A stretch of DNA of 63,686 bases, the filler included, from Rozella allomycis CSF55 (taxonomy: Eukaryota): assembly GCA_000442015.1 (NCBI GenBank). It is 10 parts of 10 records of this genome, joined end to end, with 100 filler letters (N's around TTAATTAATTAA, not from the genome) between each part and the next. Parts side by side here need not be neighbours in the genome. Positions count along the whole stretch, not along the records: positions 21,785 to 35,279 come from KE560811.1; 9 more parts are not named here. One strand, 5' to 3'. The position numbers and the translations under genes were made by a program. Below are positions 14,756 through 29,532 of this stretch, in pieces. The stretch's first letter is position 1; each line of letters begins with the position of its first letter. The notes under the pieces are model-generated. The model was not told the origin of the DNA. It ran no database searches and worked only from the letters and a program-made list of their open reading frames with translations.

Positions 14756-14856
14756 NNNNNNNNNNNNNNNNNNNNNNNNNNNNNNNNNNNNNNNNNNNNT
14801 TAATTAATTAANNNNNNNNNNNNNNNNNNNNNNNNNNNNNNNNNNNNNNNNNNNNT
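14756..14856. other. Assembly gap with artificial TTAATTAATTAA spacer (also near 17435, 21685, 35280, 53888, 55853, 58354, 60432 and 62016)
   Basis: The same N-run/12-mer/N-run layout occurs nine times; the 12-mer places stop codons in all six frames. Confidence 0.95.
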
Positions 14857-17221: not shown

Positions 17222-17534
17222 CTAAGGATGTACATAAATCAATCTATTCATTTAATAAAGTATTATCTAGCTATGTTTCTTGAAAATATTATATCGCAAT
17301 GTTAAACTAAACGGTTTGTCATTTCTATNCGCAATGTTAAACTAAACAGTTTGTCATTTCTATCTTTTTCCTGATTTAAAATCCGAAATTTCCTAAATGG
17401 TCCCGTCAATCAGCGACGATATCTTAACGCCGACNNNNNNNNNNNNNNNNNNNNNNNNNNNNNNNNNNNNNNNNNNNNTTAATTAATTAANNNNNNNNNN
17501 NNNNNNNNNNNNNNNNNNNNNNNNNNNNNNNNNN

Positions 17535-21684: not shown

Positions 21685-22133
21685 NNNNNNNNNNNNNNNN
21701 NNNNNNNNNNNNNNNNNNNNNNNNNNNNTTAATTAATTAANNNNNNNNNNNNNNNNNNNNNNNNNNNNNNNNNNNNNNNNNNNNCAGGCGGGATGTGCAT
21801 GATCAGCAGGTGTCAATGTTCGTGCAGCATATTGTAAGGACAATCGTGCGCGAAATTTCTGAAAGGGGACCGTTTGCTAGATTCAGCATCAATCGCATGT
21901 TCGTTTGGAGAGCGAGATGGGAGAATTATGCGCCGGAGAATGTTAGATTCGTTGTTGTGCAGAGACCATCTATGCAGAAGAGGTGATCGGTTGGGCATTT
22001 TGATTCATGTTAATGAAACATTCGAAAATTAATTTAAATAAAGAGTTTCGTGGGTCAATTAGTTTTCTCAGAAAATATGTATCCGTTCAAATATGTTGTT
22101 TTGTTTGTTTATCATTACAATCATAAATTTTCA

Positions 22134-23044: not shown

Positions 23045-24477
23045 ATGAAGTTTTTATTTTATCATGCTATTNATGAATGTGTTTGGTAGCATGTTGGCCG
23101 TGGCAAATAAGGAGGAAAAGTATAAAAGTATTACGAAGCTCCTATCCAAGAAAATTAAGGGCGTGGAAAAAGTGTATTCTGAACTTCAAGAACTCGATGA
23201 AACTGTTACCAAATACGCGGAAAATTTTACGGGTTTAAAAACTGATATGAATGGGTTGAAGAAGAACATTGAGGACTTATGCTTAACAGAAAGAAACGAA
23301 TTAATGAATGGTTTCAGTGCTTGTTTCACTGAAATAACATTGAACGGGAAAAAACAAAGCATTAATAATCACTNTGGTGGTAACAACCAGCAGGTTCAAG
23401 AAGTTTTAAAGATAGTGGACGTAAGTGACGTAGGTAACTGTATTACATGAATGTTAGGTAGATAACAACGAAAATCTTAAAAATCTGGAACATATTCAGC
23501 AAGTGAAGCCAAGTTTTGTTAAAGCGTTGGATAAGTTTCGTGCAGTGACTTATGTGGATGGTGTCATTAAGCGGGACTCGGATGAAGCCAAGAAAATAGT
23601 TAGTATAGCTGAAAAATCAGATGAATTAATGAATGAATATTGTAAAATTGTGGTGCGCGAGGTTCATAAATCCTTGGATCTTTGCAAAGAAAGAATGTCT
23701 GCCATAATGAATGTGTTTGGTCGCATGTTGGTCGTGGCAAATGAGGAGGAAAAGTATAAATGTATTACGAAGCTCCTATCCAAGAAAATTATGGGCGTGG
23801 AAAAAGTGTATTCTGAATTTCAAGAACTCGATGAAACTGTTACCAAATACGCGGAAAATTTTACGGGTTTAAAAACTGATATGAATGGGTTGAAGAAGAA
23901 CATTGAGGACTTATGCTTAACAGAAAGAAACGAATTAATGAATGGTTTCAGTGCTTGTTTCACTGAAATAACATTGAACGGGAAAAAACAAAGCATTAAT
24001 AATCACTACGAAGAATGCAACGATAGAGGTGTTAGAGCTTTACTGTTGACTTTGGCTATCTATGTGAGAAAGAAGCGAATGGATGGAGAGAATGACTTTG
24101 CCTTGGATTTTGATCCAAAAGATGACTATGTTTTAGTAAATAATAATGGTGAAGCGGATTGTATTCCTTATTATGATCTTTCTAAAGCTTTACAATGTGT
24201 TACTGGCAACATTCCAGAAGTAGACGAATTCCTGGAAAATATATCAAATGTGAATTCACAAATTCGTCTACATAAAACTGCATTAAGCAGACTAATGATA
24301 AAGTGTAATACACTTATTCGTAACACCGAAGATTTTGTTGAAGATGACACAGACGAAAGTGAAATAGAAATCAGCCAGAGAATTAATGATATTGGAGATT
24401 TATGCAAAATTGCAGCAACCTCAATTTACTACAGCGATTTATTTCTAACGGCTTTGCAAAGTTTTACCGAACATTGA
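23045..24477 (+). CDS. Secreted helical protein family, copy 1 (5' part scrambled by assembly junctions)
   Basis: MKFLFYHA start; same intron position as copies 2 and 3; shared VTYVDGV.KR.S, GKKQ.IN.HY.E, ALLLTLAIYV, DG.NDF.LDF.PKDD and ALQCV..IPEVD motifs. Confidence 0.75.
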
Positions 24478-25051
24478 ACATTAATATTTAAATAAATTAA
24501 TATTCTATCTTTTAATTGTACCCCTTTTATATAAATGTTATCATTCTGGGATGAATGGCGATAAAATTTAACAACCCTGAATGAAGCCAAATCTAGCGAA
24601 CTGGAGTGCTATCTTTACATTTAGAGTGACAACACGACGAATGAGANCGACGTAGCCGACGCTTGGAAGTTAGCATGTACCAAAAAACATAGTTTTATCA
24701 CATATCTAACTTTTCAAAATGGTTAATTAGCAATGATTATTGGTTCGATTATTAACAGTTGAAGTGTGACGATCAATAGCATTACCTAATTGATATGTCC
24801 AGCCTCCCACTGTCCACAGTTATCCAAAATCGCTTCAAGGCCTCCCTTTATGTAATCGCAATGCTTTTTGGAAGAAAATAAGCGCATAAACTTCTAATTT
24901 CATAGCTCTTTCAAGTCATTTAAGCGGCTGTAGCCTGTAATTGATATGCTATGTACAGACTGCACTTTAGTAGTATTTCTGCATTATTTTAATTATAAAT
25001 TGAGGACTTTCAAGAAAACAAATCAATTAATAAAATAATTAAATGATAAAT

Positions 25052-26420
25052 TTATGTAAAATAGCCTAGAATTGAAATTTTGTCACCGACCGAAATGTCC
25101 TTGTCAGCAACTATTCTAATACGATGAGAGTCAGTGTATTCAATCTTGGCATTTGGAAATTCATCTTTGGCAAGAAAGTTTGAAAGTTCATAGAACCCAA
25201 CCCCAGCTACTTTGGAAAGATCAGGTGCTGCAACAGACAAATAGTTATCTAATTCCTTTGCGTTAGTGGCATCGCGAACTGGAGAATCATCAACGGAGAA
25301 GCCAATCATGTTTCCACTAACTAGACCTTTAACGATTAAGAAAGTCGTTGGTTCTAATAGAGCAGCAAAGTCTGGATTCTTCTTTGGATCAGTGAATCTA
25401 GACAAATCGCCAATCTTGCTGATTTCTTCTTCAAAGTTCAAATTTTGATCGAATTGCATTGTCTCTAAATGATTTGTCATTCTCATTTGAAGTTTTGGAG
25501 CTGAAAATTTAGCCAAGAACTTAAATGTCAAAGCTAAATCCAATGGAAGTCCAAAAACAGATTCATTTTCTTTATTAAAAGGCAACATCAACTTTTCATA
25601 ATCATCAAAGCTCTTCTTCATCACTTGTTCAGAAATGTAAAATCTACCATTTGGACTTTGCGCAGCGTTTTCTTTGTCCAACTTCATTTGAGTATCAAAG
25701 CAATATTCACTTTGATCAAGATCAGAACACAAAACAGACACAACTGGAACTTCTTCATACACCAACTCTCCTTGCTTAATATCTTTCGTTGCATGCATCG
25801 TAACAACGAGCTTCTTAAATTCAGACAAATCACTAAGCACTGTTTCATCGGTAGACAACTCAACATTCGCATTTGGAGGCACCAAACTGGCCAAGTACGT
25901 TCTCAACTGAAAAACCGTTTCGCTGCTAACTTTCGATGCAACACATTCAGACAAATCTCTTCCATAAGTTTGCTCAATCATTCTCAACAAATTAGGTGCA
26001 TCAGGAACCAGTCTCACTGCCTTGGCAATATACTCCGCAGCTTCCATGAACTTGCTAGGCCCCATCTGCGCAAACGTTTCTCCGATCGCCAAAAGCCTTT
26101 GCAAATACTCAACTCTTTCATTCTGAGACATTAACGCTATTTGCTCCATGCTAATTTCAAGAATTCCTTCAGTTCCTTTTCTTTCCTTTTCCTTTTTCGT
26201 TTGTTTCTTGGCATCTTTCTGCGCCTTCTCTTCGCTCTTCAACTTCTTTTTAGCTTTCTTCTTTTCCGCAGCTATGTAAATATTTGACAACACATATACC
26301 CAAGTTTGCACGATATTCAGGATCATTTCGGCGCTTATAGTCAAAATATGCTGCATAACCAATAGTAGCAGCTGCTGCTGCAAATATGGTCACTCCCGTA
26401 ATGGTTTTCCAATTCGCCAT
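25052..26420 (-). CDS. TOM20: Mitochondrial import receptor Tom20 fused to a C-terminal degenerate SET-like domain
   Basis: Exon 1 MANWKTITGVTIFAAAATIGYAAYFDYKRRNDPEYRANL carries the Tom20 signature; 28-nt intron at 26272-26299; TPR-like GETFAQMG...EAAEYIAKAVRLVP; then MHATKDIKQGELVYEEVP ... GVGFY...PNA ... IVADKDISVGDKISI. Confidence 0.85.
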
Positions 26421-26760
26421 CACCTGACCCTGGCTATTCCAAAATAGGGCATTAAAAGCAACTGATAAAAAATGTTCAAATATCCAACATCCTTTGGCTC
26501 ACAGTTCAATAAATTGAAAAACTAAGAAATCTAAGAATGAAAATAATATATAATTACAAGCTTTCTAAAATTTGTCATTCTTAAAGTTCTCGTTTATTTA
26601 ATGTTCCTTCTCAAGAGTCAAGATCTCATTGAAAGTTGAAAGTCGATATTTAAGGTCATGAAATGATTAAAAAATATGTAAGGATTATCCACTAAATTCC
26701 GACATTTAGATTTTTAGATCAACAATTTTCGGAAAGTGACCCTGGTTTAAACTTTTAAAG

Positions 26761-27934
26761 ATGACTTTTTTCTATTGTCGCGTCCTTATTGTCCTCGTTC
26801 TCGTTTATGTTCACGTTTCAGCGTTTCCAATGACACTAGACCTTCAAGAATATGCAGGTAATAACGAACAACTTAGACAAATTTTGCGAGCAGTGTCAGT
26901 TGACACAGGTAAATGGATTATTTCGATATCACGTAGATGATAACACCCCAAAACTGGAAAATGTGAGGCGAATCGAAAAAATCAAACCAGATTTTGTTGA
27001 AGCATTAAGAAATTTTCGCACCGTGACTTATGTGGATGGTGTTGTTAAAAGGGACTCTGATGTGGCCAAAAAAATAGTGAAAATAGCCAATGACGCAGAT
27101 TCATTAATGGATGATTATTGTTCTACGGTCGTATCGCGCCTTAGTGAATCCTTAGATCGTTGCAACTCAAAACTAAGGTCAATAATAGATGTCTTGGGCT
27201 GTATGCTGAACAACTTAAATGATGAAAAAGAGCTTCAGAAGTATACAAGAGCCCTACAAAAGAGGATACAGGGTGTGACACAATTATATTCTGATTTTGA
27301 AGATCACGATAAAACTGTTAGAATTTTTACAGGAAAATTCGAAAATGCCGCTGAATCGATGAATTCTCTGAAAAGAGAGGTTGATCAATTATGCCTTCAA
27401 GAAAGAAGCGATTTAATGAATAACTTCAAACGCCTTTTCACTGAAATAACATTGAACGGGAAAAAACAAAGCATTAATAATCACTACGAAGAATGCAACG
27501 ATAGAGGTGTTAGAGCTTTACTGTTGACTTTGGCCATCTATGTGAGTAAAAAACAAATGGATGGAGAGAATGACTTTGCCTTGGATTTTGATCCAAAAGA
27601 TGACTATGTTTTAGTAAATAATAATGGTGAAGCGGATTGTGTTCCTTATTATGATCTTTCTAAAGCTTTACAATGTGTTGATGGTAAAATCCCAGAGGTA
27701 GACATTTTTTTGAAAAATATATCAAACGTGAATTCAGAAATTCGGGTGCACAAAACTGCTATAAAAAAATTATCGACAAAGTTTAATACGCTTATTTGTG
27801 GCTCCAAAGATGCTATTGAAAACAGTATTGACATAACAGACTTCGAAATTAAAGATTTAGTTTTTGAGGCAGCATGTGCAAGATATCACGGCGAACTATT
27901 TCTTAAAGCATTACAACACTTTCATATGTGTTGA
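26761..27934 (+). CDS. Secreted helical protein family, copy 2 (~381 aa)
   Basis: Signal peptide MTFFYCRVLIVLVLVYVHVSA-FP; 28-nt intron at 26909-26936; intact frame. Confidence 0.8.
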
Positions 27935-28346: not shown

Positions 28347-29532
28347 ATGAAGTTTTTCTATTGCCACGTCTTTATTATAATCGCGTATGTTCTTCATGTT
28401 TCTGGATTTCCTGCAGGTTTAGATCTGCAAGAATATGGTCGCAACAACCAGAAACTTAAAGAAGTGCTGAAAGACGTTACAATAAATTCAGCAGGTGATC
28501 GCATTTATGAAAATTTAGGTAGATGATGATGAACAACTCAAAAACGTCCAAGTCATTGAGCAGATCAAACCTTCATTTTCTAAAGCTCTAAAAGAGTTCC
28601 GTGCCGTGTCCTATGTCGATGGTGTCGTAAAACGGGGCTCACAGGAAGCAGCGGAAATAGAGAAAATAGCGAATGATGCTAATGATTTAATGGATAATTA
28701 TTGTAGTGTTGTAGTTAGCCAAGTTATGGAGGGTCTTGAATCTTGCATAGAAAATCTTCAAAACACATTAGTCATTCTTGGGCGATTTCTGGAAGCAGTA
28801 ATTGACCAAAAAAATTACCCAAAACTTTGTCAACAACTTACGTCGAGAATAAAAGATGTGGAAGATACCTATCATGAATTTGGCGACCTCGAGAAAACAG
28901 TCACCGAATACGTTAACAAATTTTCAAAGCTGGTAATTTCGATGGACAGTCTGAAAAGTGACATTGTAGCATTATGTCGCAAAGAAAGAGACCATATAAT
29001 GGATGATTTCTGTGGTACTTTCGAAGAAATCATATTGGACGGGAAAAAGCAAGCCATTAATAAGCATTACGTAGAATCGGACGATGACGGTAGAAAAGCT
29101 TTGTTGTTAACTTTGGCAATCTATGTGAAGAAAAAAGCGATGGATGGTGCTAATGATTTTAGCTTGGATTTCGAACCTAAAGATGACCACGTAGTAATAT
29201 TCAATGATGATCAAGCCGATTGCATTCCTTATCATGACGTTTGCAGAGCTTTACAATGTGTCACAAACAAGATTCCGGAAGTAGATGAGTTCTTGGAGAA
29301 ATTGAATGAAGTGTCTTCACATATCCGTGTTCATAAAAATGCAATCATGAGAGTAAAGAACAAGTGTAAACCATTGACGAGAATCGTCAAAAACGTTGCC
29401 AAAGAAAATGTGGAAACAAGTGATCGCGATGAAATTGAAGACGAAATCACCAGTGCTTGCCGCTTTACAGCGGCTATGATTCGTTACAGCGATATTTTTC
29501 TGAAGGCATTGGAAAACTTCAATAAGTTTTAA
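28347..29532 (+). CDS. Secreted helical protein family, copy 3 (~385 aa)
   Basis: Signal peptide MKFFYCHVFIIIAYVLHVSG-FP; 28-nt intron at 28495-28522; intact frame. Confidence 0.8.

Follow-up and report, generated by a model that had tools for sequence, protein, structure and literature searches.

Structure of the Tom20-SET gene

A gene joining a Tom20 import receptor to an SET-like domain lies on the minus strand of the window (the whole stretch of Rozella allomycis CSF55 DNA that was analyzed, 63,686 nt with the filler between joined records), where it runs through two exons from a start ATG at 26420 to the end of its stop codon at 25052. The gene is O9G_005136, and a protein search returned P0003 (hypothetical protein O9G_005136, 456 aa) at 100% identity to the locus. 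The interval 25052..26420 assigned in the first-pass annotation, which had been drawn from the sequence alone, proves to be exact at both ends and on the minus strand. Exon 1 (26300..26420, minus strand; 40 codons plus 1 nt, 121 nt), translated as MANWKTITGVTIFAAAAATIGYAAYFDYKRRNDPEYRANL, encodes a short N-terminus, a transmembrane anchor and the basic YFDYKRRNDPEYR Tom20 signature, and its N-terminus aligns with those of the family members described below. It is followed by a 28-nt GT..AG intron (26272..26299, minus strand), the removal of which restores a reading frame that, unspliced, spans only 82 aa between stops. The predicted intron and P0003 agree on the splice junction, between RANL and AAEKKK, and relatives align over it without gaps. 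At 28 nt, the predicted intron (GTATAT...ACATAG) is unusually short for a fungus, its basis being the database model and these gap-free relatives.

Exon 2 (25052..26271, minus strand) stays open through 405 codons before its stop and encodes a charged linker, the Tom20 receptor and the SET-like part, so that the uninterrupted passage from receptor domain into SET part described in the first-pass annotation is borne out. The Lys/Glu-rich linker and the Tom20 (MAS20) cytosolic receptor domain occupy 25943..26251 (minus strand), as defined by the Pfam MAS20 and 9i7s_K matches. The SMYD-type split SET domain, which lacks both a post-SET region and a C-terminal domain, occupies 25055..25882 (minus strand; P0003 residues 181-456) and is delimited by Pfam SET, ESM Atlas, AF2, Foldseek and VIA. 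Within this domain, alignment to the family places the remnant of an MYND zinc finger insertion, with C241 as its sole Cys, at 25547..25717 (minus strand; P0003 residues 236-292), and the string AKDEFPN, which replaces the xHSCxPN cofactor/zinc motif of the family, at 25151..25171 (minus strand). In the same alignment, Tyr454 (25061..25063, minus strand) falls, with a one-residue MAFFT offset, on the terminal SY, or putative catalytic Tyr, position.

The database gene model contains an optional upstream mini-exon, MTNFRKL (26558..26578, minus strand), from which P0003 starts as MTNFRKLGQV; the borders of the corresponding intron are a GT at 26557-26556 and an AG at 26431-26430, and P0003 gains ten N-terminal residues. 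The status of this mini-exon is uncertain, since relatives begin about 10 residues ahead of the anchor, as does a protein starting at the ATG at 26420. The window contains 817 N characters, including paired 44-N runs (e.g., 14756-14799, 17435-17478, 21685-21728) and many single Ns (such as 24627), which indicates an assembly of draft quality. The Tom20-SET coding sequence is free of Ns.

The Tom20 portion

Both Pfam domains expected of such a fusion are found above their cut-offs (27 bits for MAS20, 22.4 bits for SET), as a profile check suggested in the first-pass annotation had anticipated. For MAS20 (PF02064), exon 1 scores 38.4 bits over profile positions 3-29, and exon 2 residues 7-109 score 34 bits over positions 26-129 of 132. 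These scores are low for the MAS20-SET family, in which 23 of the 49 matches exceed 120 bits. The anchor and basic segment, ITGVTIFAAAAATIGYAAYFDYKRRNDPEYR, are followed by a Lys/Glu-rich stretch, and AF2 predicts a single long helix across residues 12-88. Among solved structures, the fungal Tom20 chain 9i7s_K matches the single Rozella protein over query residues 6-124 (E 6.5e-4) and the family profile at an E-value of 1.8e-45. The reading as a Tom20 anchor and receptor is supported by the translation of exon 1, the MAS20 matches and the 9i7s_K matches. When queried with the single Rozella protein, the PDB sequence search returned Tom20 only, and SMYD proteins appeared only with the family profile.

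The Tom20 proteins of yeast, Neurospora-type fungi and animals (9i7s, 7vc9, 1om2) have in common with the Rozella protein an N-terminal anchor, a basic YFDYKRR segment, a charged linker and a helical receptor domain. The solved Tom20 proteins, however, are 145-185 residues long and end after the receptor domain, whereas the Rozella protein runs about 276 residues further. In Tom20, the membrane anchor is N-terminal and the remainder of the protein is cytosolic, a topology by which everything after residue ~40 of the Rozella protein, including the SET module, lies on the cytosolic side of the mitochondrial outer membrane. A search for shorter proteins yielded, from 141 candidates, a single metagenomic Tom20 fragment (88 aa) and no stand-alone Rozella Tom20, which is weak evidence that there is none.

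Predicted fold of the C-terminal portion

Residues 158-399 of exon 2 match Pfam SET narrowly above the cut-off (24.3 bits), and in ESM Atlas the C-terminal 282 residues group with SET clusters (0.93), including an msta cluster that has zf-MYND in 14% of its members. Using the 43-sequence family alignment, AF2 returns a model with a pLDDT of 86 and a pTM of 0.73, in which the domain junction (residues 151-190) is a continuous helix and strand at a pLDDT of 90-96. From the single sequence of the C-terminal 282 residues, the pLDDT is 34, and the shape of the MYND remnant in the AF2 model may be imposed by the family alignment. A complex prediction pairing the Tom20 receptor part with the SET part, run without the family alignment, scored 0.02, a value that speaks neither for nor against contact between them.

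In the PDB, Foldseek ranks 1-39 for this model are all SMYD1, SMYD2 or SMYD3, with SMYD3 and SMYD2 first (best E 5.8e-10). VIA-align superposes model residues 178-455 on residues 2-242 of the 430-residue SMYD2 chain 5wcg with a Z of 19.4 and an rmsd of 3.1 Å over 226 residues. Non-SMYD entries (a plastid RNA polymerase-associated SET protein, Rubisco LSMT, SETD6, SETD3) reach a Z of at most 14.4, the exception being one row with a Z of 16.1 at an rmsd of 23 Å. In the predicted model, the C-terminal domain is specifically SMYD-like, with N-SET, insertion, I-SET and core-SET in succession, and it ends where the post-SET of SMYD proteins starts. The SMYD-like SET fold put forward in the first-pass annotation is therefore the fold that is predicted (pLDDT 86; SMYD at Foldseek ranks 1-39; Z 19.4), and the objection named there, a C-terminal region devoid of an SET fold, is thereby removed.

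Human SMYD1, SMYD2 and SMYD3 (5wcg, 3mek, 3n71) superpose on the Rozella model across N-SET, insertion, I-SET and core-SET (Z 18-19.4, rmsd 3.0-3.8 Å, ~225 residues) with a sequence identity of only 14-18%. Unlike these enzymes, the Rozella module lacks the MYND zinc ligands, the NHSC motif and the post-SET, and it is membrane-anchored via Tom20. Since the structural alignment ends at residue 242 of the 430 of SMYD2, there is also no TPR-like C-terminal domain in Rozella, and this domain is missing from the whole MAS20-SET family. With SMYD fold present but MYND ligands, NHSC, post-SET cluster and C-terminal domain all absent, filing the Rozella protein as an SMYD methyltransferase is unwarranted. 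The relation of the family to SMYD proteins can also be followed in sequence: the family profile matches SMYD3 at an E-value of 4e-29, in a block aligned with SMYD3 VGVGLYPSISLLNHSCDPN ... GEELTICY ... CDCFRC that sets SMYD3 NHSCDPN against the xHSCxPN of the family.

A fungal family of MAS20-SET proteins

An HMMER scan of 1.84 billion representatives (query exon 2 residues 40-405, E <= 1e-3) retrieved 50 proteins including the Rozella protein, many of which match both halves of the query, the best spanning query residues 10-361. Among the 49 non-Rozella matches, MAS20 and SET occur together in 38, with zf-MYND as well in 18. Five have SET without MAS20 (four of them short, one with a hydrolase domain), another five have MAS20 without SET (e.g., the 263-aa Exobasidium protein P0055), and the one remaining is an unrelated TPR protein. 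Named members come from Cokeromyces recurvatus (Mucoromycota), Rhizoctonia solani (Basidiomycota) and Furculomyces boomerangus (Kickxellomycotina), and the taxonomic range given here for the family is that of these three named proteins together with the survey in PMC9692433. By every feature that can be tested, the Rozella gene is both a Tom20 and a member of this family.

The architecture itself is already known. In the available text of PMC9692433 (J Fungi 2022), "Group 25" SET genes are described in one sentence, with no function attached, as carrying MAS20 upstream of SET and as absent from Ascomycota, and the accessible Table S1 counts 88 Group 25 genes in total across 229 fungi. The Rozella row of that table, in the form available, gives 14 SET genes, 12 of them classified, with no Group 25 entry. 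These descriptions, and the 38 matches of 49 with both domains, substantiate the Tom20+SET annotations in non-ascomycete fungi that had been mentioned in the first-pass annotation. In a literature search covering sources outside the subscription journals, no functional study of a Tom20-SET fusion was found, and PMC9692433 was the sole mention of the architecture. What is new is the membership of Rozella, the extreme degeneration of its copy and the recurrence of loss across the family. The fungal MAS20-SET (Group 25) proteins present the same order as the Rozella protein in one polypeptide, namely anchor, Tom20 receptor domain and MYND-split SET. The Rozella protein differs from these relatives in being without HSC, without the post-SET CxCxxC and without the MYND cysteines that are common to 41 of the 42.

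Degeneration of the Rozella SET module

Family-wide comparisons were made on an alignment of Rozella and 42 family members, from which P0027, P0032, P0039, P0043, P0044, P0051 and P0052 were left out as having no SET domain or as non-members. The MAS20-SET consensus in this alignment reads GxGLYxxSSYLxHSCxPN ... GDELxxSY ... R..L ... CxCxxC, and its Rozella equivalent reads GVGFYELSNFLAKDEFPN ... GDKISILGYFT-stop. The SET-like strings picked out in the first-pass annotation (MHATKDIKQGELVYEEVP, GVGFYELSNFL, IVADKDISVGDKISILGY and AKDEFPN) are all present and fall on conserved SET blocks of the alignment, and its observation that the NHSC.PN position reads AKDEFPN is confirmed there, the His, Ser and Cys of HSC all being replaced. 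The post-SET CxCxxC, a zinc cluster on which that annotation had not remarked, is likewise absent from Rozella, where the chain stops two residues past Tyr454. A profile of the family C-terminal tail, run in three frames over 24400-25120 (650 nt downstream), gave nothing above -1 bit that could represent an overlooked exon encoding the post-SET cluster. Tyr454 itself lies at the SY position of the family, given a one-residue shift in the alignment, and the structural alignment finishes at SMYD2 residues 241-242. The Tyr closing the SET core is the residue that we take to be catalytic.

The MYND position had been described as retaining only isolated Cys, and a single one, C241, is in fact left in that region of the Rozella protein, against four to nine in 40 of the 42 relatives; of the other two, P0011 has two and P0029 is truncated inside the region. 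Positions C244, C263 and C267, kept in 41 of the 42 relatives, are changed in Rozella, and Pfam zf-MYND has no match in the Rozella protein. Among the 26 alignment columns conserved at >=85%, Rozella retains 17; three zinc cysteines and the HSC Ser are among the nine that differ. The core-fold positions retained are G218, E224, P226, H318, N371, G407, P423, N424, A439 and G446.

Leave-one-out profile scoring of the 38 alignment rows having both domains separates the two halves of the protein. The SET part of Rozella scores 109 bits (median 312), the lowest of the 38, and its Tom20 part 107 bits (median 182), the fourth lowest; the resulting SET/Tom20 ratio, 1.01, is again the lowest of the 38. 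As gauged by these scores, the whole Rozella protein is fast-evolving, and its SET half has decayed more than its Tom20 half. With its motif losses, Rozella is the most decayed member of the MAS20-SET family. The Rozella branch is also very long (2.61 changes per column), so its decay may be a general phenomenon and not a specific one.

Recurrent loss of catalytic and zinc motifs in the family

Degeneration is not confined to Rozella, a point that goes beyond the first-pass annotation. An intact HSC is found in 28 of the 43 alignment rows, 25 of which also have CxCxxC (the Cokeromyces protein P0053 being one of these), and three further rows retain the H and the C (HQC, HAC, HDC) together with CxCxxC. 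In the remaining 12 rows, Rozella included, H and/or C have been lost, and none of the 12 has CxCxxC. The full MYND C4-C2HC pattern persists in six of these 12, and the second MYND zinc site is gone in several members whose HSC is intact. The survey of NHSC retention proposed in the first-pass annotation thus finds the HSC core widely kept, but the motif of the family is xHSC and not NHSC: the canonical Asn ahead of HSC is present in only two of the 43 rows, its place being taken mostly by S, T, G or A. Given this scarcity of the canonical Asn, the HSC-intact Tom20-SET proteins may be regarded as candidate SAM binders and putative enzymes at most.

On the maximum-likelihood tree, the loss of H and/or C is accounted for by six changes, at least five of which are forced by well-supported branches. 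When motif loss was shuffled, the mean rose to 10.6 changes, and none of 500 shuffles gave a number as low as that observed. The position of Rozella on this tree is unreliable because the long branches of Rozella and P0036 attract each other. That catalytic and zinc parts were lost repeatedly while the domain persisted suggests a selected function that is, in part at least, non-catalytic.

Discussion

The Rozella Tom20 probably carries a cytosol-facing, SMYD-derived pseudo-methyltransferase that has been kept as a non-catalytic module. With the MYND zinc ligands, the H-S-C residues and the post-SET lid all lost, this module most likely neither binds SAM nor methylates, and we hold with considerable confidence, on the grounds of its motifs, that it is catalytically dead. 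Cofactor binding by SET domains relies in good part on backbone atoms, which counts against a motif-based call of lost SAM binding, and the retention in Rozella of Asn371 and of the Tyr that closes the core also speaks against a dead enzyme.

A mechanism for such a module would start from an old fungal family in which an N-terminally anchored presequence receptor, Tom20, extends into an MYND-split SET of SMYD type. In Rozella, the module would have kept the SMYD core fold after its zinc and cofactor sites had gone, and would have been retained as a non-catalytic part beside the presequence-binding domain. The remaining SET peptide cleft and the I-SET surface would then serve as the docking site for an extended stretch of a client or partner protein, and Tom20 would thereby acquire a second site of contact. 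The docking role of cleft and I-SET surface, the mechanism that we favor, is putative, as is the peptide- or chaperone-binding role suggested in the first-pass annotation, and we regard docking as a real possibility that falls somewhat short of being the expected outcome.

The main rival to a retained non-catalytic module is that the SET portion is a vestigial appendage of an ancestral Tom20-SMYD fusion, neutrally decayed in a fast-evolving parasite and harmless to Tom20, but functionless. Neutral decay would be consistent with the SET score and the SET/Tom20 ratio (1.01) of Rozella, both the lowest of 38, with its being the sole member of 43 without C244, C263 and C267, and with its very long branch; the occurrence of MAS20 without SET in five of 49 matches, such as Exobasidium P0055, indicates furthermore that the module can be lost. 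A functionless sequence is harder to reconcile, however, with 276 codons that have stayed open in DNA of 34.5% GC, for which base composition gives a chance of p ~1e-9, with the retention of 17 of 26 strongly conserved columns, core-fold positions among them, and with a fold that AF2 predicts confidently. In addition, one would expect a compact parasite genome to have shed dead sequence. On this evidence, we consider a vestigial module unlikely, if still to be reckoned with. The proposal that the fusion is an artefact of the gene model, and that the Tom20 and SET parts are separate products made, for instance, by internal polyadenylation or from an internal start, can appeal to a database record that annotates MAS20 alone on P0003. 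Both domains, however, are encoded in one exon with no intervening stop, the same domain order recurs within one protein in 38 of the 49 matches, and the junction is modeled confidently as a continuous helix and strand, which makes separate products the least probable of the explanations weighed here.

It might instead be argued that the module is a still-active lysine methyltransferase with a non-canonical cofactor pocket, whose substrates at the import site would be precursors, TOM subunits or chaperones. The fold, the terminal Tyr and Asn371 are retained, and 25 of the 43 family members possess both HSC and the post-SET cluster and, judged by these motifs, may be active. In Rozella, though, none of the motif's His, Ser and Cys survives (AKDE), the post-SET lid is absent, with the chain ending two residues past the Tyr, and 11 other members are defined by the same combined loss. 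An active Rozella enzyme is hence very improbable, and a non-catalytic module kept on the import receptor continues to be the explanation that we prefer.

Regarding the age of that non-catalytic module, Rozella represents an early-branching lineage, and its possession of the fusion would date the fusion to the last common ancestor of Fungi. The broader proposition that the fusion descends from that ancestor and that its selected role is that of a non-catalytic docking site for clients or chaperones on the import receptor, and not methylation, is advanced only tentatively, and we think it doubtful as a whole. Its signature would be the independent loss, at least five times over, of the catalytic and zinc apparatus from a domain that is itself retained. 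If it were true, most fungi outside the Ascomycota would have an additional recognition module on their TOM receptor, one that is missing from the yeast-based textbook model.

Tom20 is the textbook presequence receptor, and its standard description is based on the small proteins of yeast, Neurospora and mammals. The presence of an SMYD-type domain on Tom20 in many fungi outside the Ascomycota suggests that a further activity or a docking site exists where proteins enter mitochondria. The Rozella copy amounts to a natural experiment in which the catalytic and zinc apparatus is gone and the scaffold is kept, pointing to a non-catalytic role and defining a minimal module. With it, the SET family gains a likely pseudoenzyme, and the fusion is now placed in Cryptomycota, where the available portion of PMC9692433 does not list it.

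Neighboring genes

The Tom20-SET gene sits on the opposite strand within a tandem array on the plus strand, with copies at 23073-24477, 26840-27934 and 28429-29523. The array comprises at least three full paralogues and one fragment, encoding proteins of about 340-365 aa; relative to the copy at 26840, the full copies are 59% and 47% identical and the fragment 47%. The array proteins show a weak, sub-threshold resemblance to Pfam ATG17_like, at 22-29 bits against a cut-off of 43.
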